From Candidatus Harrisonbacteria bacterium (GTDB lineage Bacteria > Patescibacteriota > Minisyncoccia > UBA6257 > 02-FULL-45-10c): a stretch of DNA of 64,000 bases. The translations under genes were made by a program, and so were the position numbers. The stretch lies in assembly GCA_016192685.1 (NCBI GenBank), contig JACPTS010000001.1, positions 529,099-593,098 of the forward strand, read 5' to 3'. The stretch's first letter is position 1; every line of letters starts with the position of its first letter. The notes beneath the pieces were generated by a model that did not search any database, was not told where the DNA came from, and saw nothing but the letters and a program-made list of their open reading frames with translations. Below are positions 1,123 to 47,554 of this stretch, one piece after another.

Positions 1123-1194
1123 GGGCAGTTAGTTTAATGGTAAAACGCTGCATTCACATTGCAGAGAGCATAGGTCCGATTCCTATACTGCCCA
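1123..1194 (+). tRNA. tRNA-Val (anticodon CAC)
   Basis: Manual cloverleaf. Acceptor GGGCAGT/ACTGCCC, D-arm GTTT/AAAC, anticodon stem CTGCA/TGCAG with loop TTCACAT, T-arm ATAGG-TCCGATT-CCTAT, discriminator A, no encoded CCA. Confidence 0.7.
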
Positions 1195-2741: not shown

Positions 2742-2744
2742 AAT

Positions 2745-3233
2745 TTATTTATAACAAACCTCTAATCCATAAAATATTCCGTCTATATTTTTTAGTGATT
2801 TTATGCGAAAAGGGTAGTTAGAATTATTGAGATTACTCGCTGTTCTCAATTTATTTTCTTTCCAATTTTCTCTTTTGGGATACACGCTTATTGCACAGCC
2901 AAGGCCACCAGCATCAATCAAGCGGCCACCTTCGTCATAAAAGATTCCTAATACAAGACCTTCTTTTTCCCATTCTGCCCAACCAACCTCATCTAAGGGA
3001 TAACCCTTGGGTTCTTCGCCACGAAGAGGTGAGCCAATAGCTGTTTTTATTTGAGAAAAGGATTTCCCAAAAAGAGAGGGGATATCAAATATTATTCCTT
3101 GAGTTGGTAATGGTGGTTGAGAATCGCCAGTTGATATAATCACAATAAATAGGATAAACAATGCAGCAAAGGTCATCGCACCAATAGCAAACTTTTTGCT
3201 TGGCCAAGTTTTATTTGAATTTTGTAATTCCAT
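2745..3233 (-). CDS. Hypothetical membrane-anchored protein (island cargo)
   Basis: N-terminal hydrophobic helix FAIGAMTFAALFILFIVIIS. No recognisable domain. Confidence 0.4.
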   Translation of the reverse strand: MELQNSNKTWPSKKFAIGAMTFAALFILFIVIISTGDSQPPLPTQGIIFDIPSLFGKSFSQIKTAIGSPLRGEEPKGYPLDEVGWAEWEKEGLVLGIFYDEGGRLIDAGGLGCAISVYPKRENWKENKLRTASNLNNSNYPFRIKSLKNIDGIFYGLEVCYK

Positions 3234-3296
3234 TTTATTTTTTTAATTATAATTGCGACCTTTTGGCTAAACCTTTTAGAAAATAAAAAGGGACAG

Positions 3297-3430
3297 CCAG
3301 AACCTGCAACCCACAGTATTGAAAGCCGTGAAGCTCCCAATTGTGGAGGTTTGGCTGCCCCTTTCTGCCCGCAATTGGGCTAAGTAGCAGCTCTTCACGG
3401 AAAAACAATACTGTAGGTTGCATTTTTATT
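3297..3430. repeat. Long imperfect inverted repeat / structured intergenic element
   Basis: tgcaacccacagtattg...ccgtgaag...caattg is mirrored by caattggg...cttcacgg...caatactgtaggttgca, giving arms of about 40 bp. Confidence 0.5.
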
Positions 3431-3489
3431 TTAACACCATATATTTTGATTAGTAAATTACTCCAAAATGTCTTTTGATAAACTTGGTG

Positions 3490-3852
3490 CTAATTTTCAC
3501 AAATTTTAATTGTTAATGGCGACTTTACTGCGGTGCGTAATACCACTCCTTTCTTCGCAAAATTAGTAATATAGTTTTGTAAGTAGTCATCCGTTACAGA
3601 GTTTTGGTCATAAACGATTAAAATCCGTCTAACAAATTCCGTGCTCAGCATTTCTTGAAGCTGATTTATCGTGCGGATATTTGCATCACCACATTCTTCA
3701 TCGGCAATACATTCGCTGATGTAAATATCCGTTTCTGGATTTATGTCAAAACCATTTTCCTTTGCGTATTCTAAACATTTCTCTTTTCGTAGCCCCAACG
3801 ATTCTTTGTGAGGCGCACATTTATTTAGGTAAATTAACGCTTTATTTTTCAT
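3490..3852 (-). CDS. Degenerate serine-recombinase catalytic-domain paralog (catalytic Ser replaced by Cys)
   Basis: ALIYLNKCAPHK...KCLEYAKENGFDINPETDIY aligns to the integrase N-terminus ALIYLRVSTDRQ...RCLEYAKQNGYGVDETTDIY, but the S-TDRQ motif is lost. 120 aa. Confidence 0.6.
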   Translation of the reverse strand: MKNKALIYLNKCAPHKESLGLRKEKCLEYAKENGFDINPETDIYISECIADEECGDANIRTINQLQEMLSTEFVRRILIVYDQNSVTDDYLQNYITNFAKKGVVLRTAVKSPLTIKICEN

Positions 3853-3857
3853 ATTTT

Positions 3858-4337
3858 TTAGTTATTAGCCAATATTTGCTTACGGGCATTATTTAATTTA
3901 TTAACAAAGTAATCAGCTTCATTTTGCGGTAATTGCTGCACTATTTCATATAAACTAAATTCTTTATTGTTATTGCTTTCTACTGGTTTTGGCGGCTCAA
4001 GCCGTAAAAGTTCGGCCTGCCCCCTTAAAAGTTTTTGCAGTGCATTCAATGCACCAATTTTGGCATTGCTATTATCCGCCTCACTAAAAACGCACCAGCA
4101 TTCTTTAATTGCCAAATCGTAAGCCAATACCTGATTACAGAAATAGCGGTCAAGGTTTAATTTTTTATTACGATTACCTACTCGCCGTGCGGCCACCCGC
4201 AAATATTCTTTGGCCGTTGCCCAGTTTTTAATTCCAAGCCGCCGCATTATTTGATATGGCTTTTTAACGCCTATTACAAATAAAGCTTCAGTTTCGTCTA
4301 ATAAATATTCTCGGTCTATGTTTTTATGATTGGCCAT
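3858..4337 (-). CDS. Hypothetical protein (island)
   Basis: 159 aa ORF in the leftward island block, no recognisable motif. Confidence 0.35.
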   Translation of the reverse strand: MANHKNIDREYLLDETEALFVIGVKKPYQIMRRLGIKNWATAKEYLRVAARRVGNRNKKLNLDRYFCNQVLAYDLAIKECWCVFSEADNSNAKIGALNALQKLLRGQAELLRLEPPKPVESNNNKEFSLYEIVQQLPQNEADYFVNKLNNARKQILANN

Positions 4338-4535
4338 AATGTTGGTTGGGTTTCCCCTAAATTGTGCAATTTTGGCACAATTTTACTTATAGAGTGCAAT
4401 TCTTGCACTATTTTTACTTGCTTTACTTTTAGTAAAGGATAGTATGCTAATTTTTAGCTTAAAATCTTGTTTTCTTTTTCTTGCCTGCCCGCAATGAGCA
4501 AACGAAAGTTTGCTCATTGCTTGCTTGTAAAGCAA
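4338..4535. promoter_or_regulatory. Intergenic cluster of inverted repeats (candidate operators or origin)
   Basis: aattgtgc-aattttg-gcacaatt, agtgcaa-ttc-ttgcact, and a perfect 13-bp inverted repeat gcaatgagcaaac-gaaa-gtttgctcattgc. Confidence 0.4.
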
Positions 4536-5030
4536 TTATTTGACGGTATTTTCTGGGTTATTCTCTGTAATATTTTGCCCATAATTGCAATTTGTTTTGT
4601 TTGTTTCTACAAATTGATTTGTGGCTTCTGACGGCTGGGCATTGGTTTTGCGTAACAATTCTAACAGTTTAATGACATTTATTTTAAAATGTCTTTTGGG
4701 CGGCACTCCCTCTTTTTTAACCTCTAAAATCCCTAATTGCTTCCATTTTTTAATTGCTGTGTCTTGCTCGCCTCGCGTTAGTTTTGTTTCTTGGGACATT
4801 TCCTTAATGGTTTTATAAATCCACCCGACCTTTTTCCCCTTTTCCCACCAAAAAAGCAATTGCGACATAAATAAACCAGCATTGGCACTTTTAGCTAATT
4901 CTGCCAATAAAGGGTTAAATGCTATAGGTTTTGCGGATAAGGCCTCTAACAATATCCTATTATAATTTTTGGGTAGTTTTCGGGTCATATTTTTTAGATT
5001 TTTTAATTTTTGATAGTGAGCCGTGCTCAC
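4536..5030 (-). CDS. RepA_N / replisome-organiser-like winged-helix protein (putative replication initiator)
   Basis: Motif LFMSQLLFWWEKGKKVGWIYKTIKEMSQETKLTRGEQDTAIKKWKQLGILE resembles RepA_N/DnaD-like N-terminal wHTH domains. Confidence 0.45.
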   Translation of the reverse strand: MSTAHYQKLKNLKNMTRKLPKNYNRILLEALSAKPIAFNPLLAELAKSANAGLFMSQLLFWWEKGKKVGWIYKTIKEMSQETKLTRGEQDTAIKKWKQLGILEVKKEGVPPKRHFKINVIKLLELLRKTNAQPSEATNQFVETNKTNCNYGQNITENNPENTVK

Positions 5031-5031
5031 T

Positions 5032-5052
5032 ATTTTGATAATGGTTTAAATC
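5032..5052. promoter_or_regulatory. 9-bp inverted-repeat candidate operator upstream of the RepA_N-like gene
   Basis: atagtgagc-cgt-gctcactat, directly 5' of the minus-strand start at 5030. Confidence 0.4.
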
Positions 5053-5139
5053 CTTTGCGACAAACACCAAAACACGAGCAATGGCATCAATTACCATTTC
5101 GGTTAAGACCCCCTTGTTATCGGGCTGATTTTCCATAAA

Positions 5140-5200
5140 TTAACGCCCCCAAGTAGCAGCCCGCCACCTTGAGGGCGTTAATTTATGGGAGCTGCTACTT
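5140..5200. repeat. Nested hairpin with aagtagcagc/gctgctactt arms
   Basis: ttaacgccc...gggcgttaa nested with aagtagcagc...gctgctactt. The 10-mer aagtagcagc also occurs at about 3383, and a near copy (aagtagtagc) lies just 3' of tRNA-Val. Confidence 0.4.
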
Positions 5201-5270
5201 TTTCAAAATTAAAAAGGGCTATATGCCCTTTATACACCCACTTTTTATTTAGCCCCGCCAACAATTGTTA

Positions 5271-6077
5271 CTATTGTTGTCCGTTAATATCAATATCAAA
5301 CCATTGTTTAATTAACTTTTTAATACGCTTAAATGCATTACCGACAGCTCCCGCCGTTGTTTTTAGTTCTTTTGCAATTTCACGGGCTGTAACTTGGTTA
5401 TATCTAATAACTACATCTTTTTTATATTCCTTTTCCAAGCCCCGAAGTTTTTTGGGAGAATAAGTGCCGCTCTTTTTAGCTATCACTAAAAAGCTGGACG
5501 GTAAATAATCCTTGCGCCTAACTGGATTTCCAATTCTTTTAATCAGCTTGTCAAAAATAACTAAATCTCTTTTAAATTGTTTTCGTGAGCGTATTGGTAG
5601 TGTTGTTTCTTTGGAAAAATAAAGTTTCTGTAAGTTTTTTAAATCATTTAAAGCCAGTTTTATTTCTTCTTTGTCTAAAAGGGCAAAAGTTTTAATAGAT
5701 AAATAATCAACCTCGCCGCTTTTTGGCTGGTGCTCAATAACAAAATTATAAACAGGGGGCACAATTTTATTTTTTAGAATGTAAGCCCTCAACCCATCGC
5801 CAAACAAGTTGATAAGGTGATAAGGCAATTTAAATTTTCGCCCCAATTGTTCTAATTGATTGCCGAATTTTAAATTGTCTTCTTTTTCATTAAGGGCTCG
5901 CTGCCAATTTGCCATTTGTTCGTCAGTAATAATACCGCTGCTGGGTATGTTGAATTGTTGTCTAATCGCGACGGCTTCTTTCTGGAATTGGGGTAATCTA
6001 ATCAATAATTCAAGCCGCATTCGGTTACGAAATGCGGCAGAACCCAAATTGATTGGTTTTTCGCGGCGGGCTGCCAT
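5271..6077 (-). CDS. Hypothetical protein with C-terminal HTH (sigma-70 region-4-like)
   Basis: C-terminus VTAREIAKELKTTAGAVGNAFKRIKKL is a helix-turn-helix. 268 aa. Confidence 0.4.
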   Translation of the reverse strand: MAARREKPINLGSAAFRNRMRLELLIRLPQFQKEAVAIRQQFNIPSSGIITDEQMANWQRALNEKEDNLKFGNQLEQLGRKFKLPYHLINLFGDGLRAYILKNKIVPPVYNFVIEHQPKSGEVDYLSIKTFALLDKEEIKLALNDLKNLQKLYFSKETTLPIRSRKQFKRDLVIFDKLIKRIGNPVRRKDYLPSSFLVIAKKSGTYSPKKLRGLEKEYKKDVVIRYNQVTAREIAKELKTTAGAVGNAFKRIKKLIKQWFDIDINGQQ

Positions 6078-6170
6078 ACAGGCATAATTTAAGGGACTGT
6101 ATCCAAAAAATCAATATACTACCAGCTTGTCTTAAGTAATTTTATACGATAAAATAAAAGCACTTAAAAA

Positions 6171-6359
6171 ATGATTTCCAACGAGGCACTAAAAGAATTT
6201 AAGAAAATTTGGCTTGAAGAAAAAGGCACAGAAATTTCTGATGCGGAGGCAATGGATGAAGCATCTAATCTTTTGACTTTGTTCAATGCTGTTTATCGCC
6301 CCGTGAAAAAAGAGTGGCTGGAAAACCAACCAGAGGAAAAAGGAGATAAAAAATTATGA
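6171..6359 (+). CDS. Small hypothetical protein (first gene of cargo operon)
   Basis: 62 aa, acidic. Its stop overlaps the next start (ATGA), consistent with translational coupling. Confidence 0.35.
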   Translation: MISNEALKEFKKIWLEEKGTEISDAEAMDEASNLLTLFNAVYRPVKKEWLENQPEEKGDKKL

Positions 6360-6961
6360 TTATAGACTTCCCAAAAATCAAAGAAAATTTACACAAAGGA
6401 ATGGAAATTTTCTTACGACAAGAAATTAACCGTAAAGCTCCTTTTGCGGCAACGATTGGCAAACACTTCTTTCACGAAGGAGATAAGTCCTCTTACGAAA
6501 CAGTTGACCGTGAAAAAAAAGCTCTTGATTTTAAACGAGGCGAGAGTCAATTTACGGTAACTCGTGATGAAATGAATAAGTTGACCATAAAAGACATAAT
6601 TCAAAAAGTTCAAGGTATCGCAGAAGATATGGCGGGACAAATAGAGCGTAATCTATTCCAAACAATGAACGAAACTATTGAAAAGTCTGGCAATACAATA
6701 CCTGGTAATCCGCCGTTCTCGCCAGAAGCATTTTTGAAGGGTCTGGAAATGGTTGAAATTGATTTTGATGAGGATGACCGCAACAAACCTCAACTTCCCA
6801 CGCTGGTGATGCACCCAGACCTTGCGAAGAAAGCCAAAGAGCAGGAAGCCAATATGACAGCAGAGGAAAAGAAAGCCTTTGACGAAAAGATGAAGGCGAT
6901 GATAGATAAGAAATATGATGATTTTCTCACCAGAGAAGCCAAAAGAAAATTGGTGGACTAA
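6356..6961 (+). CDS. Hypothetical protein (cargo operon)
   Basis: 201 aa, charged/coiled C-terminus, no recognised domain. Confidence 0.4.
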   Translation: MIIDFPKIKENLHKGMEIFLRQEINRKAPFAATIGKHFFHEGDKSSYETVDREKKALDFKRGESQFTVTRDEMNKLTIKDIIQKVQGIAEDMAGQIERNLFQTMNETIEKSGNTIPGNPPFSPEAFLKGLEMVEIDFDEDDRNKPQLPTLVMHPDLAKKAKEQEANMTAEEKKAFDEKMKAMIDKKYDDFLTREAKRKLVD

Positions 6962-8615
6962 ACTCCTCTCCCGCCTTCTTGGAACGAAACCAGCAATTCA
7001 GGAGAGCGTGAAGGAGTCCAACCCGTTTTTGGAGCGAACCATTGAAAATTGGTTAAACTCCGCAAATGAAATGGGTTATTTAATGCCCTTCAGCCAGCTT
7101 CTGTTAAGCGAGGAATTTAGTATTTGTCATACCTCACGTCAAAATGCTTTTGAGCAAGGCAAAGATGTGGTTGCGCTTGATAAGCACGGAAGCTCCCACG
7201 CCTTCCAACTAAAGGGCGGCAACATTACGCATAGCAGATGGCTTAAGGAAGTTAAAGGAGAGATTGAGGAATTGATTGATTTGGCTATTGAGCACCCATC
7301 AGTCAGTAAAGGGAGTAAGCACAAATCTTATTTGGTAACCAACGGTGAATTGGAAGACACGGTGCGAGTGGCGATTGATAATCTTAATTCAAACAAGTGG
7401 AAGGAAAACCCTCTTGAAGTGATTACCTACGGACAACTTTTGAGGGGGTTTGTGGCATTAAGCAATACTTTCGTGCCGCAGAAAGTTGGAAACTATAAAA
7501 CATTCCTTGATTTATACTTCAGCAATGGCGGCGGGTTAATTGACGAAAGGATTTTCTCTGATTTTATCGCTGATGTCTTGAGACTGAAGGAAGACGGTTT
7601 GTTTAAAGAAGAACGGCGAAGAAACGTTGCGGCGGCTGTATTATATACGAGCTACATCCTTGCTCCGTTCAAAAAAGAAAATAATCACATCGCAATCATT
7701 CAAATTCTTACCCTGCTTGGGAGTCATATTATGGCTGTGGCAGAGAAGTTTTCCCTCCCAGAAAAGTATTGGGAAGAATCATTCAAAATCATACAAGACG
7801 AAATTTTCCTTACTGGAGGTAGATTACAGGAAGAAATTACAAACGATGGGCTGGTTACGCTCGTTAATTCAATGTGGGATGGCGAGATTGGTAGTTACAG
7901 AAGGCATCTGGCGGTGAGCTATCTATTCTCCTTCAAGTTAGCTCAACTTTTTGAAAAGAACACTCTGTGGAACAATGCGGTCAATGATGCGTTCTTCGTG
8001 AAGTTAAAAGATTCAATGAAACTGTGGGGCGAAGGCGCAATCTATTCATTGATTGTATGCTTCCTGTATGTGAATAGGGCTTTGAGTAAAAAAGAAGATG
8101 ATAGAGCATTTTCTCCGCTCTTTACTGCCCTTGAGGCAGTCTTAAAATTCAATAGTCCAGATAGTAAATTTGGTTTGTTGTCGCCATATTACGGAATCAC
8201 GTTTGCAATTAAGCGGCGGTATGGACAGCTTGAGGAACCGTTGGATGAAAAGTTCACTGGGCGGTCATTCTTGATACGGTCTCTGATTGACCTTTTGGCA
8301 CGCCACAGTAGGAGGTTAGAGTTGGAAAAGTATTGGAGAGCTATAACACATATAGCCCAAGACAAATTCATTCCTGAAGAATTATGGCAACATTTTACTT
8401 GGCATTGTGATAAGGGCGATAATCAATCCGAGTTTTCCAATCAAACTCAAAGCTGGATAGAGTTAGTAAAGAATGCTAATGCAATTGATTTTGACTCAAT
8501 ACCAAAAACCATTCAAACGCATCTGTCTTTTTTACCTCTTTTTTTACTTGTGTATCCGCACAGAATAAACAGTAATTATATAAAATTTTTAGATGAAACT
8601 GTTAAAAATGCCTAA
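6915..8615 (+). CDS. Large hypothetical protein with possible N-terminal PD-(D/E)xK-like nuclease motif (cargo operon)
   Basis: 566 aa. GKDVVALDKHGSSHAFQLKGG fits a D...(E/Q)xK pattern. The rest appears helical. The true start is uncertain because of a 46-nt +1 overlap with the upstream ORF. Confidence 0.4.
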   Translation: MMIFSPEKPKENWWTKLLSRLLGTKPAIQESVKESNPFLERTIENWLNSANEMGYLMPFSQLLLSEEFSICHTSRQNAFEQGKDVVALDKHGSSHAFQLKGGNITHSRWLKEVKGEIEELIDLAIEHPSVSKGSKHKSYLVTNGELEDTVRVAIDNLNSNKWKENPLEVITYGQLLRGFVALSNTFVPQKVGNYKTFLDLYFSNGGGLIDERIFSDFIADVLRLKEDGLFKEERRRNVAAAVLYTSYILAPFKKENNHIAIIQILTLLGSHIMAVAEKFSLPEKYWEESFKIIQDEIFLTGGRLQEEITNDGLVTLVNSMWDGEIGSYRRHLAVSYLFSFKLAQLFEKNTLWNNAVNDAFFVKLKDSMKLWGEGAIYSLIVCFLYVNRALSKKEDDRAFSPLFTALEAVLKFNSPDSKFGLLSPYYGITFAIKRRYGQLEEPLDEKFTGRSFLIRSLIDLLARHSRRLELEKYWRAITHIAQDKFIPEELWQHFTWHCDKGDNQSEFSNQTQSWIELVKNANAIDFDSIPKTIQTHLSFLPLFLLVYPHRINSNYIKFLDETVKNA

Positions 8616-8777
8616 TTGGCGACACTCATTAAGTTGGCCGCCGCCAATCGATTAAAGCAATTCTCAAACAAAATACGCTGGTATTCGCTTAATTTTTGCG
8701 ATAATGTATTGATGTATTCAATTAGTGTCCTGTTAAGCCCACCAAAATTAAAAAAGCTTCGTTAAACGAAGCTTTTT

Positions 8778-9449
8778 CTAATCTTCTTCTTCCTTCTTGG
8801 CTAATTCCGTGGCAACTATTGTAATCCCAATTTTTAACTGGCCAACGATTTTTTCCATATGCAATTCCGGTTGGGAATTTAAAGTTATTTCTACATAACC
8901 GTTTTTTGTGCCAGAGCTATTATAAGTAGTGACGCAAACCATTGATTTCCCATCTTTTTCAGTTTTTTGGAAAGTACCGTACATAGAGCCATCTTCTTTT
9001 TCAAAAAGGTTGTCAGTTTTAATTGTTTTTTCACCATTTTGTTCGGAATCATATATAAAGTTGAACAATTCAATTAAATTTTGGGCTTCTTCAGGCCGAA
9101 ATTCGGTATATTTCAGGAATTGAATGAAACTTTTACCATCCGTAGTATTTTCCAAAGAAAGCATTATTTTTTCTGGATGAAAATCCTCCGGACTAGCTGG
9201 CCAGGCATTAATTGAAACTATTTTTATTTTATTTTTTGGCTGCTCCTGATATTTTATTCTGATGCTTAATTCATCCCAATTTACGCCATAAAAAAACATT
9301 GCTATTTTTTGGTACCATTTTACATTTTGAAATTCAAGATCGTAATGAATTATTTGTTCTTTGAAATTTGTTTCTTCCGCGAAAGCAACGGCAGTGAAGC
9401 GGGAGATGAAGAAAAGAAGCAAGATTGGCGCGGTTATTAAGCGGGCCAT
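8778..9449 (-). CDS. Secreted hypothetical protein
   Basis: N-terminal signal peptide MARLITAPILLLFFISRFTAVAFA. 223 aa. Confidence 0.45.
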   Translation of the reverse strand: MARLITAPILLLFFISRFTAVAFAEETNFKEQIIHYDLEFQNVKWYQKIAMFFYGVNWDELSIRIKYQEQPKNKIKIVSINAWPASPEDFHPEKIMLSLENTTDGKSFIQFLKYTEFRPEEAQNLIELFNFIYDSEQNGEKTIKTDNLFEKEDGSMYGTFQKTEKDGKSMVCVTTYNSSGTKNGYVEITLNSQPELHMEKIVGQLKIGITIVATELAKKEEED

Positions 9450-9710
9450 TCCTTTTAAATTTTTATTTTAAATAACCTTTTTAAGGTTATTCTATTTTTA
9501 TGAAAATCACAAGTCTAATCAGGCGAAATTCCAGGGTGTGGATAACCTGCGGATAAAAAAGCCATTTTAGCTTTATTTTTTAGCCTATTTTGGCGCTGGC
9601 TGGCATTGTTAAATTTTTAATCCAAGTGGGGTACAATTAAATGGTAGTGGGGAATTGTGGATAAGTATGGGGATAGAGCGTCAATCAGGGGATAAGTTCC
9701 ACTCGCTGTA

Positions 9711-23679: not shown

Positions 23680-24504
23680 ATGGAAATAATAACAAAGAAA
23701 TTTTATTTAAAGCTTGGTTTATCAGAAAAAGATATTTTAGCTCTTAATAAAGAGCTTTCATTACTCGCTGGACTTAAATTAAGTCCATCTGCCAAACCTC
23801 GTCGTATAGAAATGTTACAAGAGGCCATTCGATGGCCAAAAGGTAAAAATCAAGAAAAAAGGAAAATAACGGAGCTTTATAAATCTGGTGATTTTATAGT
23901 TGCCGTTGGTAAACCAGGAAAAGAAGCGGCGCCAGCTTTCAAACGGAAACATTACATAACTGGCAAGATTACTAATAATCCAAATGACATGAACCCCTTT
24001 GTTATGAGGGGAGGTAAAAAAGTTGGGAATGATTTAACTTTTGCAGAATTATTTGAGCAAATTGAACATTTAATTCGAGCAGATTTACTTGGATTGGAAC
24101 TTTTAGGGATGCTTATATTCAGAATGGCTTTTATGTTAGATCACAAAAAAGATTTAAAGGGGAAATGGAGATATATTCCTCCGGAAAAATCTTTGGCAAT
24201 GCTTAAAAAACGACTCCCTAAAGTTGGCGATATTCCGGTAGATATATTTTTATATTTTCTCGATGTATTAGCTCTCAATGAGGATGTTAAGATGCATACC
24301 TTGGGTCATGAAAATGCTCGATATGATTATGGACGAGTCAATACTTTACTTACCTTTACTCACTTAATTGCAGTTTTATTAAATCGACGCTCTCTAGCAA
24401 AATTTGCTGGTACGTTTGCTCGGCCACCTTCGGGAATGGCTCCACTACCTAAAATAAAAGGACTTTTTGAAACTTATCCTCTTTTATCTCCAGATTTTGT
24501 TTAA
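23680..24504 (+). CDS. Hypothetical protein, possible PD-(D/E)xK nuclease
   Basis: 274 aa. Contains IPVD-x12-EDVK. Its 3' end overlaps the fused LexA-MTase gene by 4 nt in convergent orientation. Confidence 0.3.
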   Translation: MEIITKKFYLKLGLSEKDILALNKELSLLAGLKLSPSAKPRRIEMLQEAIRWPKGKNQEKRKITELYKSGDFIVAVGKPGKEAAPAFKRKHYITGKITNNPNDMNPFVMRGGKKVGNDLTFAELFEQIEHLIRADLLGLELLGMLIFRMAFMLDHKKDLKGKWRYIPPEKSLAMLKKRLPKVGDIPVDIFLYFLDVLALNEDVKMHTLGHENARYDYGRVNTLLTFTHLIAVLLNRRSLAKFAGTFARPPSGMAPLPKIKGLFETYPLLSPDFV

Positions 24505-25967
24505 ATTTTAATCCTTTTTCTTCCCAGAAATAATTTATGTTCTGGAGCAATGAAACCATTTGCGAGGCGTTTGTTTATTATGTCACAGTATTCTTTGTTG
24601 AGCTCGGCCGAAATAAATTGGCGATTTAAATTTCTGCATACATCTATTTCTGCACCACTACCACCAAAGAGAACTAAAACCTTATCTTTTGGCTTAGTTG
24701 ATGATTTAATAAACATTTCAGTTAATTTTTGTGGAATTTGACAAGCGTGAAAAGTTTTTTCTTTGCTGACATTTTTTACAAGATTAAACTCAAACCATGA
24801 GTAAGGCATTCTTCCCTTTGAGCCATTTGCCAGATTTTGACGAATTCTTCTGTCTGTTGGATTTTTATATGGTAACGCTACTGCGTCTTTGAAGAATTTA
24901 TTATCAGCACTTTTACGAACATGAAGTATGCTTCTGTGTGCTGTTGTGAATCTTTTTGGTGTATGTCCGACATTTGTATTATAAACCCAAACATACTCAT
25001 TAATATTAGGAAAATTTATATCTAAGTATTTTACGCGAAGATGTGCATTTTGTTGAGGATAGTTCATCATAAAAAGGTTCCCATCGTTTTTTAGAACTCT
25101 CATTGATTCCTTAGTAAGTTCGGTATACCAATTTAAATAATCGTCAAAATTTCTTGTATAGTTATTACTACCATATCTAATACCGACATTATAATCCGGA
25201 TCCCCAAAAATCATGTCAATGCTATTATTTGGCAGGTCTTTCAAAACATGCATTATATCGCCGTTGTAAACTTTATTGATATATTCAGAAATATTTCCAC
25301 GTTGTTGGGGGCTTTTTTTAGAGGGTAGAATAAATGATTGGTTTAATTGTTTTATCTTATTAGTTTCAATAACATCCAGCATAATTCCTTGAATATGAAA
25401 ATCTTGTCCGCGGCGCACAATTATCGGCTCCATTTTTTTATTTGCCGGTTGTAGACGAACTTGCCCGCGTTCTTTATAGAATTTTTTAAGCGTTGCTCCA
25501 CCATCAACTAAGGCCACAATTTTTTGACCATTTTCAGCAGTGCTTTGGTGGCGCACAAGAATTGTATCGCCATCATTAATATTTTCATCAATCATACTGT
25601 TACCAGCTACTTTTAAAGCGTAAATATTGCTATTGCTGGAATTGGGGAGTTTATTTTTAGGAATCGCTATATTTTCGCTTACAGTATCAAATAGTGTTAA
25701 TGGTTGACCGGCAGCAATAGTGCCCAGTAGGGGAATTTGAACCATTTGTTCATTTTGGTTAGATAATTCAATCCCACGAGAGATGTTATCATTTCGTCGT
25801 AAAAAACCTTTTTCTACAATCGCATCAATATGTTCCAATATCGTTGAGTGCGCGGAGAGGCGAAAATGTTTTTTAATTTCCTCCGTGGTAGGGGAAATAG
25901 ATTGTTTTTTAATAAAATCAGAAACAAAATCGTAAATTTGTTTTTGACGTCTTGTCAGTGTTGCCAT
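24501..25967 (-). CDS. Fusion protein: LexA-type repressor (wHTH plus S24 autopeptidase) fused to a beta-class N4/N6 DNA methyltransferase
   Basis: The N-terminal approximately 200 aa form a complete LexA: wHTH, hinge IPLLGTIAAGQP with the Ala-Gly scissile bond, Ser VAGNSM, Lys ATLKK. The C-terminal approximately 290 aa carry MTase motif IV (IFGDPDYN) ahead of motif I (VLFGGSGAE). Single uninterrupted ORF of 488 aa. Confidence 0.75.
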   Translation of the reverse strand: MATLTRRQKQIYDFVSDFIKKQSISPTTEEIKKHFRLSAHSTILEHIDAIVEKGFLRRNDNISRGIELSNQNEQMVQIPLLGTIAAGQPLTLFDTVSENIAIPKNKLPNSSNSNIYALKVAGNSMIDENINDGDTILVRHQSTAENGQKIVALVDGGATLKKFYKERGQVRLQPANKKMEPIIVRRGQDFHIQGIMLDVIETNKIKQLNQSFILPSKKSPQQRGNISEYINKVYNGDIMHVLKDLPNNSIDMIFGDPDYNVGIRYGSNNYTRNFDDYLNWYTELTKESMRVLKNDGNLFMMNYPQQNAHLRVKYLDINFPNINEYVWVYNTNVGHTPKRFTTAHRSILHVRKSADNKFFKDAVALPYKNPTDRRIRQNLANGSKGRMPYSWFEFNLVKNVSKEKTFHACQIPQKLTEMFIKSSTKPKDKVLVLFGGSGAEIDVCRNLNRQFISAELNKEYCDIINKRLANGFIAPEHKLFLGRKRIKI

Positions 25968-26677: not shown

Positions 26678-27066
26678 ATAAACTTAAAAAAATATTAAGC
26701 AAAATGAAATCAGATGGAAAACCAGTCTGGCTATTTGCTTTTTTAAAAATGGATGAAATTATAGATAAATGGTCTTTAGTTATTTCTGCGCCTTGGATAA
26801 ATGAACAAAATCGTGATCAAGAATTTGAATATATTATCAATTTGTTAAAAGAAAATCTTAATGGCGAAGAATTATCTTCAATAGCTCGTATTAGTGTTTT
26901 GGCTAAAGATAGTCATTTAAGTCAAGAATTAATGAAGAAAAAAACAGGTGATTTAATAAAGGAAGAACAAATAAATGGCAACATTATTCACGAAGGTCAA
27001 ATATTGGAATCAAGCGTTGAGGCGCAGTGGCCATCAAATAATTTATTTGCTAAACAATCAAGTTAA
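26671..27066 (+). CDS. Hypothetical protein (overlapping partner of the HEPN-like gene)
   Basis: 131 aa. Overlaps the upstream gene by 7 nt. AT-rich. Confidence 0.3.
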   Translation: MVDKLKKILSKMKSDGKPVWLFAFLKMDEIIDKWSLVISAPWINEQNRDQEFEYIINLLKENLNGEELSSIARISVLAKDSHLSQELMKKKTGDLIKEEQINGNIIHEGQILESSVEAQWPSNNLFAKQSS

Positions 27067-27079
27067 ATTTACTTTTATA

Positions 27080-27192
27080 AAAATTTTCTGCTAATCTATA
27101 CCAAAACCGGCGTTATATTTTTTAAATAAAATTAATCAAACCGAGTCAAATCAGTTTATTATCGCAAAACCTGCCCTTGGCAGGTTTTGCGT
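27080..27192 (+). repeat. Intergenic repeat module, copy 1 (partial: ttctgctaa-ctataccaaaaccggcg plus terminal hairpin)
   Basis: Shares the ttttctgctaatctataccaaaaccggcg segment and the hairpin cgcaaaacctgcc-cttg-gcaggttttgcg with the modules at 27969 and 29087. Confidence 0.6.
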
Positions 27193-27289
27193 CAGATTAT
27201 TTTATGATAAAATTTATAGATTAAATTTATGTGTAAATCCGAAAATAATTTTGCTTATATTGACGGCGCTAATTTGCATAAAGGCATAT

Positions 27290-27350
27290 TGAAGGTCTAA
27301 AAAGAAAAAGCCCCCGGCGGATACGGATTCCGCAGGGGTCTTTTTCGTAG
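27290..27350. terminator. Bidirectional terminator-like hairpin
   Basis: aaaaag-cccc.ggcgga...tccgcagggg-tcttttt. Confidence 0.45.
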
Positions 27351-27426
27351 TGATACTTATACTATAGCATATTCAATGTTGAAGTCAATTGGGTGTTTTA
27401 GGAATAGTTTATATAAAATATAATTT

Positions 27427-27957
27427 ATGCAAATACCCAGACGGAAGTCGGAAGAACTTAGGAGGAAAGTTGAGGGGCCGATTCATATAACTGAAGAGGG
27501 TTTTAAGCGCCTGAAAGAACGGCTGGCGCATCTTAAACTTGCGCTGCCTGGCTATATCGTTGAGACGCAACGGGCCGCCGCATTCGGCGATCGGTCGGAT
27601 AATGCTGAATATAAAGATGCAAAATCAAGATTAACCCGCACGCACTTACAAATTTTAAGAATTCAGGATCAAATTAAGCGGGCGGTGATAATTCCTTCGG
27701 GTCAGAATACTTCTGGCTCGGTCCAGCTCGGTTCCACTGTTATATTGCGGGCCGAAGGCCTCGAGTATTCCCGAGGGGCAGGTGAGTCGCGGAAAACTTT
27801 TCAAATTCTTGGCGCGCATGAAACCAATCCAACTTTAGGGCGTATTTCATTTCAGTCGCCGCTCGGTGCCGCGCTTATGAATCACAAAAAAGGCAATGCC
27901 GTCACAATCCAGACCCCAACCGGTCCCCAAAAATATATTATTTTAGAAATTAAATAA
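27427..27957 (+). CDS. greA: Transcription elongation factor GreA
   Basis: GDRSDNAEY motif and a C-terminal FKBP-like domain. 176 aa. Confidence 0.85.
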   Translation: MQIPRRKSEELRRKVEGPIHITEEGFKRLKERLAHLKLALPGYIVETQRAAAFGDRSDNAEYKDAKSRLTRTHLQILRIQDQIKRAVIIPSGQNTSGSVQLGSTVILRAEGLEYSRGAGESRKTFQILGAHETNPTLGRISFQSPLGAALMNHKKGNAVTIQTPTGPQKYIILEIK

Positions 27958-27968
27958 ATCATTCGGTA

Positions 27969-28095
27969 AAAATTCCCTTTCCTGAAAATTTTCTTTTTGG
28001 TTATCTTCTCTAATTGTATCGAATGATTGAATAGTTTCAAAAATAAAATTTGCCCTTCTAAAAATTTTCTGCTAACCTATACCAAAACCAGCGGC
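27969..28095 (+). repeat. Intergenic repeat module, copy 2 (approximately 125 bp)
   Basis: aaattccctttcctgaaaattttctttttggtta(t/c)cttctctaattgtatcgaatgattgaatagtttcaaaaataaaatttgcccttctaaaaattttctgctaacctataccaaaacc is near-identical to 29087-29212. Confidence 0.8.
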
Positions 28096-28173
28096 AAAAA
28101 TAGCGTTTTTGCAATACAGTTATCCACCAAAGTTATTTATTACAGGTTAGTTATTATAGATTATCCGCAACAT

Positions 28174-28199
28174 TCTAACATTCTGCAGAATGTTGGAAT
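28174..28199. promoter_or_regulatory. 26-bp palindrome (candidate ArsR-family operator), upstream copy
   Basis: ttctaacattctgcagaatgttGgaa, with 1 mismatch from a perfect palindrome, overlapping the regulator start. Confidence 0.6.
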
Positions 28200-28495
28200 G
28201 TTGCGGGAGTAATGATATAGTGAAAATTATGAAAACGCCGAAACAACTAGAAAGACACTTTAAGGGGGTAGCCAATCATTGGCGGATCGCGATTTTATCA
28301 ATCGTGCATCAAAATGAGGGGATTGCGGTTGATGGCATCACGAAAGAGCTTAATGCGAATTTTAAAACCATTTCCCAACACACTAGATCATTGGTCCAAG
28401 CCGGCCTTTTGAATAAAAAATATCTCGGCCGCCAAGTAACCCACACCCTCTCGCCTTACGGGAAACTTTTTCTTAAATTTATTAAATCATTCTAA
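28190..28495 (+). CDS. ArsR/SmtB-family HTH transcriptional regulator
   Basis: HWRIAILSIV...GIAVDGITKELNANFKTISQHTRSLVQAGLL wHTH. 101 aa. Confidence 0.7.
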   Translation: MLECCGSNDIVKIMKTPKQLERHFKGVANHWRIAILSIVHQNEGIAVDGITKELNANFKTISQHTRSLVQAGLLNKKYLGRQVTHTLSPYGKLFLKFIKSF

Positions 28496-28515
28496 CATTC
28501 TGCAGAATGTTAGAA
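28490..28515. promoter_or_regulatory. Perfect 26-bp palindrome, downstream copy
   Basis: ttctaacattctgcagaatgttagaa, which is its own reverse complement. Overlaps the regulator stop. Confidence 0.65.
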
Positions 28516-28677
28516 TAAAGTTTCTAAAGATAAAATTCCCTTTCCTGAAAATTTTTTGCAGCGGGGTTAAAATTTTTCAAAACATTCTCAAGTGTGTAAG
28601 GATGTTATTTTTAATATAAAATTCTTTTGCCTGAAAATTTCCGCCTGTTATGGATTAAAGAATGCTAGAATAAACAA

Positions 28678-29076
28678 ATGAGAACTTATCAGGAATTTTA
28701 TCAGAGCATCCAGAAACCATTTTTTTCTCCGCCGGAATGGGCGTTCGGGTTGGCGTGGGGGATTATTTATCCGCTGATTGTGGTTGCTGGAATATATTTG
28801 ATTTATCTGGTTTATAAAAAACAAGCGCCGAAAAGTTTACTATGGGTTTTTCTTGCAAATTTGGCCGCGAATCTTTTATTTACTCCAATTCAGCTTGGTT
28901 TGAAATCGCTTTGGCCGGCGTCAGTTGTTATTTTAATAATTTTAGGAACTTTGGCTTTTTTTGAATATAAAATCCGGCTTCATTCCAAATTGATTTTTGT
29001 TTTGCTTTTGCCTTATCTTTTGTGGGGCGCATTTGCCACTGCGCTTCAGCTGTCAATCACCCTTTTAAATTTTTAA
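28678..29076 (+). CDS. TspO/MBR-like tryptophan-rich membrane protein (short)
   Basis: KPFFSPPEWAFGLAWGIIYPLIVVAGIYLI matches the TspO KPxWxPP...VWxxLY signature. 132 aa, about 4 TM helices. Confidence 0.5.
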   Translation: MRTYQEFYQSIQKPFFSPPEWAFGLAWGIIYPLIVVAGIYLIYLVYKKQAPKSLLWVFLANLAANLLFTPIQLGLKSLWPASVVILIILGTLAFFEYKIRLHSKLIFVLLLPYLLWGAFATALQLSITLLNF

Positions 29077-29086
29077 TTTAAATAAA

Positions 29087-29283
29087 ATTCCCTTTCCTGA
29101 AAATTTTCTTTTTGGTTACCTTCTCTAATTGTATCGAATGATTGAATAGTTTCAAAAATAAAATTTGCCCTTCTAAAAATTTTCTGCTAACCTATACCAA
29201 AACCGGCGCTACAATTTTTAATAAAATAACCCAAATTAATCAGATAATTCGCAAAACTTGCTTCCGCGGCAGGTTTTTTGTCA
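29087..29283 (+). repeat. Intergenic repeat module, copy 3 (full: approximately 125-bp core plus terminal hairpin)
   Basis: Near-identical to 27969-28095 and extends through cgcaaaacttgcttccgcggcaggtttttt. Confidence 0.8.
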
Positions 29284-29335
29284 GCGGAGCCGGCATAGTT
29301 ATCTCTTATTAGAGAGCTAAATAGTTTATATAGGT

Positions 29336-29673: not shown

Positions 29674-30095
29674 AATCCATCACAATATCCGAAGTGGAAT
29701 ACGTGGCGTTTCGATTGGCGAAAGAGCATATGCTGTGGGATGAGCCGATTCCGGATTTCGGTTCCCGTTTCCCGAATATTTTAGAAAGCTGCCTGGCGTC
29801 CCCATTCCAGTCTTTCGGCGGCAAAAAATTATACAAAGGATTGCTGGAAAAGGCATCGGTATTATTTTATCTGATGGTGAAAAATCATCCTTTTAAAAAC
29901 GGCAATAAAAGAATCGCAATGACAACACTGCTTTATTTTTTATATAAAAATAAAAAATGGATAAAAGTTGATAATCAGGAACTTTATAATTTTGCCAAAT
30001 GGGTGGCTGCCAGCAATCCTAAATTAAGGCGAGAAACAATTGCCGCCATTAATAAATTTCTCTCAACTTATTTACAAAATTTTATGATAAAATAA
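29670..30095 (+). CDS. doc: Doc/Fic-family toxin (death-on-curing)
   Basis: Fic/Doc motif HPFKNGNKR (HxFx(D/N)GNKR). 141 aa. Confidence 0.75.
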   Translation: MKSITISEVEYVAFRLAKEHMLWDEPIPDFGSRFPNILESCLASPFQSFGGKKLYKGLLEKASVLFYLMVKNHPFKNGNKRIAMTTLLYFLYKNKKWIKVDNQELYNFAKWVAASNPKLRRETIAAINKFLSTYLQNFMIK

Positions 30096-46660: not shown

Positions 46661-47554
46661 ATGGAGAAAGTTGTTCAGGAAGATAAATTTAAATATTTAA
46701 GGATAAGTTTAGGATTATTAATTACGCTGGATATTTTAATTTGGGTTTCAATTTTATTTCCGGTTCGCCGGCTGGCGGAGAAAAATTTAGAGCTTTATTT
46801 TTTGGACGTCGGGCAGGGGGACAGTTCTTTTATCCGGCTGGTCGGTGGAGTAGATTTGCTGATTGACGGCGGGCCGCCGAATGGGCGATTAGAGAAGAAT
46901 TTAGAGAAGATTTTGCCTATTCAAGACCGCTATATTGATTTAGTAATGGTATCTCATCCGCAATTGGACCATTTCGGCGGATTGATTGAGGTTTTGAAAA
47001 ATTATAAAATTGGAGCGGTTTTAACCAGTAATCAAATAAGCAAGCAGGCAGCCTGGCAGGAATTAGAAAAAATTATTAAAGAAAAAGGAATTCGGCGGAT
47101 TATTTTAGCGGCCGGCGATAAAATTAAATATCAGAATTCACAATTAGATATTTTATCGCCGCGAACTTCAGACTGGGCAAAAGACATCAATGATTTGAGT
47201 TTGGTGGCGCTTTTACAATATCCTTACATACTTGAGAATGTAAGGGTGTTGTTTACGGGGGATATTAGCGGTAAAAAGGAAAAAGAACTGGCAGATTTAT
47301 ATGATTTAGATGTTGATATATTGAAAGTCAGCCATCACGGGTCGCGATTTTCTTCCGACAGCGCGTTTTTAGAAGAAGCCAGCCCGGCAGTTTCAGTTAT
47401 TGAAGTCGGCAAAAATTCTTACGGCCATCCGACATCGCAGGCGCTTGCCCGGCTGGCTAATTTTAGCAGCCAAGTTTATCGGACGGATAATGACGGATTA
47501 GTGAAGTTATTGATTGACGGCGGAAAGTTAAGGGTCTATGCCGCAAAGCAGTAA
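46661..47554 (+). CDS. ComEC-associated metallo-beta-lactamase-fold domain protein (separate ORF)
   Basis: DVGQGDSSFI, HPQLDHFGG (HxHxDH). N-terminal TM helix. Confidence 0.7.
   Translation: MEKVVQEDKFKYLRISLGLLITLDILIWVSILFPVRRLAEKNLELYFLDVGQGDSSFIRLVGGVDLLIDGGPPNGRLEKNLEKILPIQDRYIDLVMVSHPQLDHFGGLIEVLKNYKIGAVLTSNQISKQAAWQELEKIIKEKGIRRIILAAGDKIKYQNSQLDILSPRTSDWAKDINDLSLVALLQYPYILENVRVLFTGDISGKKEKELADLYDLDVDILKVSHHGSRFSSDSAFLEEASPAVSVIEVGKNSYGHPTSQALARLANFSSQVYRTDNDGLVKLLIDGGKLRVYAAKQ

Follow-up and report, generated by a model that had tools for sequence, protein, structure and literature searches.

What are the near-identical intergenic repeats that bracket an arsR-tspO gene pair in the genome of a groundwater Candidatus Harrisonbacteria bacterium? 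The repeats lie within a 64-kb stretch of contig JACPTS010000001.1 (the window, whose positions serve as coordinates throughout), where an earlier note had suggested that they represent either repeated promoter/terminator cassettes or the borders of a recombination-prone accessory unit. Our analyses indicate that the repeated module is real and not a product of chance – and that it looks like the footprint of recombination, not like a new kind of element. On balance, and with modest confidence, we read the module as a lineage-specific punctuation of the transcription units within a hypervariable accessory island, with the two copies that flank arsR-tspO being a recent duplication generated by recombination.

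The module is present in three copies, which we refer to as A, B, and C. Copies B (27969–28093) and C (29084–29208) are identical at 123 of 125 bases (blastn E = 4e-59 within the window), with mismatches at 28004 T / 29119 C and 28090 A / 29205 G. Copy A spans 27064–27195 and aligns to C 29161–29284 with 76.7% identity over 133 columns and small indels (E = 1e-21); its identity to B 28046–28093 is 87.5% over 48 nt. Copy C represents the complete unit (head, core, and tail), while B consists of the head and core and A of the core and tail. A 24-mer, S1 (AAAATTCCCTTTCCTGAAAATTTT), is exact at 27969, 28532, and 29084 and has three mismatches at 28618 – four matches in the window, compared to the 0.02 expected by chance. 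A variant of this motif, S3 (AAAATTTGCCCTTCTAAAAATTTT), lies within B at 28045 and within C at 29160, and a decayed variant lies within A at 27064. Beyond these sites, neither the 29-nt core nor S1 recurs in the 64 kb, and blastn identified no other stretch of the window that is similar to the module. The earlier note had described the same three copies around arsR-tspO, and slight corrections of its coordinates suffice: the near-identical core of about 125 bp has the limits given above, the partial third copy is slightly longer than the 27080–27192 assigned to it, and a strong hairpin is indeed common to the first and third copies. Of the two additional 24-mer sites that it placed at 28531 and 28620, the first is exact and begins at 28532, while the second is the imperfect match at 28618.

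The copies have a mosaic anatomy. Their parts are S1, a decayed version of the palindrome that flanks arsR, the variant motif S3 fused to TGCTAACCT, and – in A and C only – a terminator-like hairpin. In both B and C, S1 is followed by a 52-nt spacer and then by S3, which continues into TCTGCTAACCTATACCAAAACC(G/A)GCG. Because the 3' half of the spacer plus S3 (29136–29187) aligns at 79% to the palindrome downstream of arsR plus S1 (28505–28559), we interpret this part of the module as a decayed copy of the 'arsR palindrome + S1' arrangement. The module does not behave as a folded RNA. S1 alone is unstructured (−0.7 kcal/mol), and the predicted fold of the whole module (29080–29290) is no better than that of shuffled sequences on either strand (z = −0.04 and −0.02). 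Searches against Rfam 15 returned only tRNAs at the gathering score, and only spurious miRNA matches on the arsR palindrome at E values up to 1; given the Rfam results and the folding z of ~0, we rejected a structured RNA or riboswitch. Small open reading frames (ORFs) that start within the module (28027–28212 and 29142–29312) were rejected as spurious, as the part they share is only a repeat-encoded N-terminus that has no equivalent in A.

Whether the module is unique to this locus has a two-part answer. The full 125 bp was found here only, whereas at least seven related contigs from Harrisonbacteria or Paceibacteria contain building blocks of it (L labels below denote contigs and loci other than the window). 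A core 23-mer had no exact match in genome or metagenome contigs, and neither S1 nor a core 26-mer had a match in viral contigs. A 20-mer from S1 had 18 matches in metagenomes, three of which are relevant (L094, L100, and L109), the rest being chance matches in unrelated, mostly coding sequence. S1 is exact in L091, L092, L094, L100, and L109, loci in which the DNA of tspO, HTH-Doc, a 257-aa gene, and greA is 76–81% identical. The S3 core is 93–95% identical in L092, where it directly follows the stop codon of an MjaV gene, and 93% identical in L100, where it follows a methylase gene near dnaK.

We next consider where the motif sits. Within 129 kb of sequence (the window plus the related loci), we identified 29 distinct instances of the motif family, all of which are intergenic and on the strand of the flanking gene; 20 shuffles yielded none. 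As the motif itself led us to L094, L100, and L109, the independent instances in these contigs are limited to the additional copies. Most S1-type copies lie no more than ~50 nt after a stop codon, with the next start codon 12 to >300 nt away, and in eight instances a strong hairpin follows the motif by 9–21 nt. At the orthologous position after tspO, the motif differs between genomes at 3–4 of its 24 bases – roughly like coding DNA – and the exact S1 copies occupy non-orthologous positions. These patterns are consistent with S1 serving as a gene-end motif, one that usually follows the stop codon by somewhere between a few bases and a few tens of bases and shares the orientation of the gene.

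The individual loci illustrate how the parts are reused. In L092, an exact S1 follows an RNase_T gene (window 29080–29107 corresponds to L092 7915–7942 at 28 of 28 nt), and motif variants follow a 267-aa gene and a NYN gene. A unit between arsR and tspO in the window, unit M, is homologous (28514–28640) to L092 4345–4492, upstream of NYN, and to L109 675–756. L109 has the order S1–palindrome–arsR–palindrome–S1. L091 encodes arsR–Pyr_excise–tspO; upstream of these, a 107-aa gene has an exact S1 at its stop codon, and tspO is followed 7 nt later by a variant. The ArsR of L091 is 57% identical to the window ArsR, and the arsR gene there is likewise flanked by palindromes. In L094, greA is followed by an exact S1 and then by unrelated DNA, and two more variants follow other genes. 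L100 begins with the 3' end of dnaK and contains S3-like and S1 motifs after the gene that follows the methylase. The Harrisonbacteria locus L009, whose tspO is 83% identical, contains four copies of a sister motif (AAAWTTYCYCTTCCGCGGGAG) within 3.5 kb, which separate DUF4357-PDDEXK-HTH, PP2C, tspO, and GIY-YIG genes; two of these copies are within a 90-nt repeat composed of the motif, a terminator-like hairpin, TGTGATAAAAT, and an ATG. The accessory genes that share these elements are unrelated to one another (restriction-modification, toxin-antitoxin, NYN, RNase T, greA, arsR, and tspO genes), and the elements are thus the only stretches that neighbouring gene units have in common.

Two of the copies end in a hairpin. 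Copy A contains the hairpin CGCAAAACCTGC-CCTTG-GCAGGTTTTGCG at 27163–27191 (−22.3 kcal/mol) and copy C a related one at 29250–29280 (about −14 kcal/mol), in which a C-to-T change retains a G-U pair. The form common to both is AAAAC(C/T)TGC ... GCAGGTTTT, an A-tract/hairpin/T-tract structure with the features of an intrinsic terminator: in A the T tract is inside the extended stem, and in C the stem is followed by T6. Both hairpins are absent from the output of a consensus terminator scan, probably because the T run is here part of the extended stem, and the scan credits a T tract only where that full stem has ended. In relatives, the hairpin that follows the S3 core covaries, with compensatory changes between AAAACCGGC/GCCGGTTTT in L100 and AAAACTGGT/ACCAGTTTT in L092. 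The left arm AAAACCGGC is kept in A and C, but ~60 nt of tail precede the hairpin there, and it is inside this arm that B departs from C. The identification of the A and C hairpins as intrinsic terminators is thus supported, as a prediction.

Evidence for a promoter is slighter. A single candidate is conserved: TTGCCC-17 nt-TAACCT, with a TG at −15/−14, is shared by B (28050–28078, TG at 28070), C (29165–29193), L092, and L100, and its −10 element matches the consensus at three of six positions. It falls below the threshold of our promoter scan, and the region as a whole contains no excess of promoter-like sites (19, compared to 17.8 in shuffles). The stretch TCTGCTAACCTAT fused to S3 may be readable as a weak extended −10 promoter. 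A minus-strand candidate in the spacer, TTGAAA-16-TACAAT, was rejected, as L020, the only partial homologue, does not conserve it and the total of promoter-like sites is that expected by chance. Of the promoter/terminator cassettes proposed in the earlier note, then, the terminator half is strengthened by the A and C hairpins and by the covarying hairpin in relatives, while the promoter half is weak and sub-threshold.

The module resides in a region of gene turnover. Between the end of dnaK (23676) and the start of dnaJ (32770) lie ~9 kb of accessory genes with a G+C content of 0.29–0.40: a 274-aa ORF, a LexA-S24-N6/N4-methylase fusion, a HEPN-like pair, copy A, a NYN remnant, greA, copy B, arsR, unit M, tspO, copy C, an HTH_17-Doc pair, and further small genes. 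L100 and L092 encode different gene sets at what is apparently the same dnaK-dnaJ hot spot. The position of tspO has changed – it follows Doc in L092 and precedes HTH-Doc in the window. In L090 (326–736) and L091 (1489–1899), arsR and tspO are separated by a Pyr_excise gene, whose 136-aa product is T4 endonuclease V-like; no trace of this gene was found at window 28496–28677, where unit M, with two 24-mer copies and a decayed palindrome, is in its place. The NYN gene, intact in L092, has lost its body in the window: what is left (27229–27389) consists of the 23 opening codons and a stop codon, then a strong hairpin and the 3' flank. ArsR and TspO themselves have different histories, as ArsR is only 57% identical to its L091 counterpart and TspO is 83% identical. 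These comparisons lend support to the idea of a recombination-prone accessory unit – tspO has moved, Pyr_excise is missing, NYN is reduced to a remnant, and motifs mark the unit boundaries – with no excision or deletion product seen.

Two broader generalizations about tspO were rejected. arsR-tspO is not a conserved pair: among 80 loci from GTDB species representatives, no ArsR homologue adjoins tspO, and L090 and L091 have the order arsR–Pyr_excise–tspO. Nor are direct repeats typical of tspO insertions, since flanking repeats were found at 4 of 80 tspO loci and at 9 of 128 control positions, which represents no enrichment. A separate case was observed in L020, a metagenome-assembled genome (MAG) of Patescibacteria, where tspO is bracketed by 39-nt inverted repeats (971–1700; palindrome TTCGCCTATTCGCGCGAATAGGCGAA). 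Outside these inverted repeats is an 89–99-nt direct duplication of the promoter and first 22 codons of a downstream PIF1/RecD-like helicase gene. This duplication is real but isolated.

We propose that the punctuation would consist of a gene-end motif, a decayed operator, a weak promoter-like core (S3 + TCTGCTAACCTAT), and an intrinsic terminator. The origin of B and C that we infer as most likely is that the arsR-tspO unit was joined to greA by homologous recombination inside this shared punctuation, with the left crossover falling in S1 and the right join in the left arm of the terminator hairpin. Both greA and tspO appear to have carried S1 before the duplication, because greA is followed by S1 in L094 and tspO is followed by S1-type motifs in L091, L093, and L009. 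As C continues into its native tail and B does not, B would be the derived copy. Copy A, downstream of restriction-modification genes next to dnaK, would be an older paralogue, since it is at the position that the core occupies in L092 and L100. One consequence is that a cassette between 125-bp direct repeats, 1,115 bp apart, should be deletable or amplifiable by ordinary homologous recombination. The repeats with their make-up, the hairpins, the occurrence of the parts in relatives, the placement of the motifs at gene ends in one orientation, and the turnover of genes in the island are direct observations, while the recombination scenario, the terminator and promoter roles, and any activity of S1 itself are inferred.

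Several points weigh against this reading. S1 lacks a stable RNA structure, yet it is conserved at 24 of 24 bases in several genomes, which exceeds what a simple spacer in the 3' untranslated region would need. S1 is also confined to the accessory island, with no copies in the other 55 kb, which is unexpected for a general transcription signal. An illegitimate join at 28093/28094 is the minimum that the recombination scenario requires. Both roles considered here, terminator and promoter, are predicted from sequence, and the promoter-like element combines a poor −10 with a terminator-like hairpin that follows at once in L092 and L100 – an odd arrangement for a promoter. Finally, the spacer and tail have no convincing homologue in the available relatives, where we found only marginal matches of 15–16 nt.

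Independent assemblies provide a further view of the locus. In Logan contigs of the same strain from other sequencing runs, the flanks are 100% identical and the contig ends coincide exactly with the edges of the repeat: 27998 (30 nt into B) is the last position of three contigs, one continues through B to 28089, and L005–L007 start at 29175 (30 nt before the point at which B and C diverge) and run into HTH-Doc. Such exact stops are the expected behaviour of a true repeat that is longer than the k of 31. One contig (L001) reproduces greA plus copy B, including the B-specific base. Neither the B-to-arsR nor the tspO-to-C junction was recovered in an independent assembly. For GreA and HTH_17, the exact proteins are on record from NCBI and from 5 and 9 Logan contigs, respectively; for ArsR (88 and 91 aa) and TspO, the NCBI MAG is the sole source of exact records. 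The cassette may be under-represented, variant, or polymorphic for presence in those runs, or the index may be incomplete.

A more dynamic explanation, which we consider unlikely but worth setting out, is that S1 and S3 are sites of a site-specific recombination system that shuffles 1–3-gene cassettes in Harrisonbacteria/Paceibacteria islands – by the logic of integrons or dif modules, at an unrelated site and through a putative recombinase. On this account B and C would be the two ends of one mobile arsR-tspO cassette present in only part of the natural population, a corollary that we grade no higher. The absence of ArsR and TspO from all Logan assemblies, with both flanking proteins present, is what such a polymorphism would produce. 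Direct-oriented copies do punctuate small units: a motif is on either side of arsR in the window and L109, L009 alternates motifs with DUF4357-PDDEXK-HTH, PP2C, and tspO, and copies follow MjaV, the 267-aa gene, NYN, and RNase_T in L092. Islands of exact identity 24–28 nt long are embedded in non-homologous flanks (29080–29107 and its L092 counterpart are beside tspO and RNase_T, respectively), homology with relatives stops at the right edge of S1, and the motif has a weak 9-6-9 dyad that is clearer in the L009 type (AAATTTCCC-TTCCGC-GGGAATTT). The toxin-antitoxin, restriction-modification, and stress genes also resemble the contents of chromosomal cassette arrays. However, no tyrosine or serine recombinase signature is encoded beside any motif array in the 129 kb, the only recombinase being a large serine recombinase 25 kb away, beside tRNA-Val. 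Some rearrangements (Doc-tspO-253aa in L092; arsR-Pyr_excise-tspO in L090 and L091) do not involve the motif, which moreover has no attC-like fold. Its fixed place after stop codons and upstream of terminator-like hairpins fits a transcribed element, and the post-tspO motif drifts at about the rate of coding DNA (3–4 of 24 bases).

The paired arrangement of some motifs could alternatively reflect binding by a regulator. On this explanation the 24-mer would be the site of a DNA-binding protein (an operator or enhancer of an island-wide stress or defence regulon) and the modules would be duplicated regulatory regions, with the repeats serving regulation and not recombination. Copies often form pairs, spaced 76–108 nt and enclosing a palindrome (as in B, C, unit M, and L092 4361/4470), the exact 24-nt conservation is accompanied by partial dyad symmetry, the islands encode LexA-like, ArsR, XRE, and HTH_17 proteins, and some variants (L011, L092 4470, and L109 1508) have a TAnnnT hexamer 17 nt after TTGCCy/TTCCCT. 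We nevertheless consider a regulator site improbable: it is the distance to the upstream stop codon that is short, while that to the downstream start codon varies (12 to >300 nt), all copies have a single orientation relative to genes, identity at 24 of 24 bases across sites and genomes is unusual for operators, and no candidate protein is common to all of the loci.

More doubtful again is a small non-autonomous mobile element or interspersed repeat of the miniature inverted-repeat transposable element (MITE), repetitive extragenic palindrome/bacterial interspersed mosaic element (REP/BIME), or BOX type, with B and C as young insertions and A as an old one. One exact master sequence with decayed variants at non-orthologous positions in several genomes is what such an element would leave, the modular build of S1, S3, and a palindromic unit in either orientation recalls BIME and BOX, and the 13-8-13 palindrome is also found as an in-frame insertion in an MBL/ComEC-like gene. 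The module lacks terminal inverted repeats and target-site duplications, though, and its three copies in 64 kb are all within 2.2 kb. The complete 125-bp unit is absent from the three collections searched (the core, for exact matches, in genome and metagenome contigs; S1 and the core in viral contigs; the spacer and tail in related loci). No transposase or RAYT-like gene was seen, RAYT not having been searched for with a hidden Markov model (HMM). The left edges of B and C moreover coincide with an S1 that is already beside greA and tspO in relatives, which is a better fit to recombination than to insertion.

That A and C are small RNA genes of ~80–95 nt, with a core promoter and a hairpin terminator and with B as a truncated copy, seems very improbable. 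In both copies TTGCCC-17-TAACCT with its TG is followed 60–75 nt later by a strong terminator-like hairpin, which is kept through a G-U-compatible change, and this is the layout that such genes would have. Against it, there is no Rfam match, the module folds no better than shuffles (z ~0 on both strands), conservation between A and C is only ~77%, with indels, over the part presumed to be transcribed, and this part has no homologue in relatives, where the core leads directly into the hairpin. Least credible of all is an assembly artefact in which the cassette was wrongly threaded between two copies of a collapsed repeat: the unrecovered junctions and MAG-only ArsR and TspO records would permit it, but the Logan breaks at both repeat edges demand a branching repeat in the reads, a read pair exceeds the 125-bp repeat in length, two positions distinguish B from C (with the B-specific base reproduced in L001), and the 'motif–arsR–motif' and 'tspO–motif' arrangements are also found in relatives.

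We thus return to transcription-unit punctuation as the favoured reading. The features of the repeat region are collected in the following table.

Table 1. Coordinates of module copies and associated genes in the window.
Feature	Position	Strand	Details
Copy A	27064–27195	+	Decayed variant motif 27064–27087; TGCTAATCT 27089–27097; AAAACCGGCG 27103–27112; tail; hairpin 27163–27191
NYN-domain gene remnant	27229–27300	+	23 codons, MCKSENNFAYIDGANLHKGILKV*; tblastn against residues 1–23 of L092 NYN, 52%, E = 0.004
greA, 176 aa	27427–27957	+	Pfam GreA_GreB_N, GreA_GreB; stop codon 11 nt before copy B
Copy B	27969–28093	+	S1 27969–27992; spacer with decayed palindrome half 28018–28034; S3 28045–28068; AAAACCAGCG 28084–28093
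arsR-family gene	28165–28516	+	Pfam HTH_5; start most likely 28220 or 28229; stop 28495
Middle unit M	28532–28641	+	S1 28532–28555; decayed 13-8-13 palindrome ~28578–28609; S1 variant 28618–28641
tspO, 132 aa	28678–29076	+	Pfam TspO_MBR 5e-25; TGCTAGAAT 6 nt upstream of ATG
Copy C	29084–29284	+	S1 29084–29107; spacer; S3 29160–29183; AAAACCGGCG 29199–29208; tail; hairpin + T6 29250–29280

Copy A is 3' of a 131-aa gene and 5' of the NYN remnant. The remnant itself is preceded by a promoter-like TATGATAAAAT (27203–27213) and followed by a strong hairpin (27305–27345, −25.1 kcal/mol), and the preserved NYN 3' flank at 27360–27389 is a 90% match to L092 5097–5126. The arsR gene is bracketed by palindromes of 42 nt (28165–28206) and 29 nt (28488–28516), which are probable operators. 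The tspO stop codon is 7 nt before copy C, and TspO is 100% identical to a protein from a Candidatus Harrisonbacteria MAG (608-kb contig).

A recurrent feature of the island genes is an extended −10 box, T(A/G)TGATAAAAT, located 6–20 nt upstream of an ATG with no Shine-Dalgarno sequence. We observed it in the window (27203–27213 and 30083–30093), L009 (7060), L092 (4535 and 9199), L100 (2980), and L109 (1577), and the upstream region of tspO (TGCTAGAAT + 6 nt + ATG) resembles these sites. This arrangement suggests that many island genes may have leaderless or near-leaderless mRNAs.

The palindrome family extends beyond the island. A 33-nt 13-8-13 palindrome at 47222–47254, with a CCTTACAT-ACTTGAGA-ATGTAAGG core, lies within an MBL/ComEC-like gene (ORF 46661–47554). 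Its identity to the L109 palindrome that lies 3' of arsR is 97%, and other members of its family are found on either side of arsR in L091 and ahead of NYN in L092. At the protein level, the palindrome accounts for an in-frame insertion of 4–7 residues, which only 3 of 18 aligned homologues show; in L112, whose MBL/ComEC-like gene is 74% identical overall, 21 of 24 bases of the palindrome are retained.

Additional observations concern the remainder of the window and other genomes. At the dnaK end of the island (23680–25967, minus strand), a 488-aa protein fuses a LexA DNA-binding domain, an S24 peptidase, and an N6/N4 DNA methylase; its gene overlaps the end of the 274-aa ORF, which has no Pfam match, and it possibly represents restriction-modification under SOS-type control. 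The large serine recombinase (1134–2741, minus strand; Resolvase + Recombinase + Zn-ribbon) abuts tRNA-Val (1123–1195) and is followed by ~8 kb of ORFs without Pfam matches, and 1123–9500 is probably an integrated mobile element or prophage remnant. A 25-nt A+T-rich sequence at 9451–9475, just upstream of the minus-strand ORF 8778–9449, matches the last codons and stop of tspO (29061–29085) at 24 of 25 positions, which may be chance in A+T-rich DNA. In other Patescibacteria loci, intergenic repeated modules of 40–115 nt spaced 1–3 kb apart are common and mostly look like composites of terminators, operators, and promoters. L029 (4876–4979 / 7878–7981), L031 (5435, 6814, and 7404), L062 (5822 / 7658), and L022 (1474–3092) each have repeat families of their own, several of which combine a hairpin with TTGACA-type promoters.

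The genomes of Candidate Phyla Radiation bacteria are tiny and contain few recognisable mobile elements. As we read this locus, these bacteria nonetheless possess a lineage-specific vocabulary of short intergenic elements, and the dnaK-dnaJ hot spot turns over defence, toxin-antitoxin, and stress genes in small element-bounded units. The more interesting by-product of the analysis is the 24-nt motif: found at gene ends, it delimits shuffled accessory units in several Harrisonbacteria genomes and could be used to locate accessory islands and unit boundaries in Harrisonbacteria MAGs. The duplication flags a 1.1-kb segment that could be lost or amplified by homologous recombination. Were the motif instead a recombination site, it would define a new cassette system of much wider interest; we know of no cassette system in this phylum.

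How does the module compare to known systems? Acinetobacter pdif sites are 28 bp long (11-6-11) with two Xer-binding arms, and the sites that flank a module are inverse, XerC/D and XerD/C (PMC6449649). The Harrisonbacteria islands resemble dif modules in their 1–3-gene accessory units, often toxin-antitoxin or stress genes, which are bounded by short conserved sites and placed in changing contexts in related replicons. They differ in that the site is 24 nt with a weak 9-6-9 dyad, that all 29 of the instances in 129 kb are direct and gene-co-oriented, and that no recombinase can be linked to them. We accordingly rejected S1 as a pdif site: it has 24 nt and not 28, its arms AAAATTCCC / GAAAATTTT form a dyad at 7 of 9 positions, and the sites are not inverted.

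The islands also share with integron arrays and clusters of attC sites lacking integrases (CALINs) the organization of short same-strand units that are each followed by a related site, a richness in toxin-antitoxin and defence genes, and sites that are more alike within the lineage than the genes are. attC sites are imperfect palindromes of 57–141 nt that fold as single strands. Neither S1, S3, nor the module has such a fold, and the units carry their own promoters and operators; an attC identity was rejected, as the module contains no inverted-repeat arms and folds like shuffled sequence. A signature search (not an HMM search) found no HxLRH[ST]-type integron integrase among window ORFs of 70 aa or longer, or among ORFs of 100 aa or longer from ten related loci.

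Two further candidates were set aside. MITEs of the Correia or repeat unit of pneumococcus (RUP) type do not fit, as we found neither terminal inverted repeats at the ends of A, B, and C nor, outside the repeat itself, any duplicated bases common to the flanks of B and C. In diversity-generating retroelements, template and variable repeats differ at adenine positions, the variable repeat lies in a target gene, and a reverse transcriptase is encoded nearby; B and C have only two differences (T/C and A/G), both are intergenic, and no reverse-transcriptase domain was found in the ten neighbouring proteins scanned.

The B/C pair itself is similar to the repeats left by single-crossover (Campbell-type) integration or unequal recombination: near-identical direct repeats surround an insert, C is complete and B truncated, and L020 offers a parallel. 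It differs from the Campbell-type case in that only the product was seen, with no donor circle, empty site, or deletion variant observed.

The remaining comparison, to BIME/REP of enterobacteria and BOX of Streptococcus pneumoniae, draws on established knowledge of these repeats and not on a homology test. BIME/REP and BOX are mosaic intergenic repeats that may supply terminators and serve homologous recombination. The module differs from them in several respects: it has no sequence similarity to them, S1 is not a hairpin, and a few copies are present in one island as opposed to hundreds genome-wide. Neither S1 nor S3 is a palindromic unit; the 13-8-13 palindrome found alongside them in B, C, unit M, L092, and L109 is a separate element, which occurs in both orientations. 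The likenesses are those of short, modular, extragenic, and probably transcribed repeats at gene 3' ends, with copies that range from exact to decayed and a palindromic unit in either orientation alongside other conserved motifs. Consistent with the extragenic 3'-end placement of REP/BIME, every instance of the motif family is intergenic and the S1-type copies mostly lie within ~50 nt of a stop codon. Copies of the module may, like these repeats, provide or accompany terminators and act as substrates for homologous recombination. By analogy, then, BIME/REP and BOX appear to be the closest known systems in behaviour to the module as a whole, and the direct repeats of single-crossover or unequal homologous recombination the closest to the B/C pair.

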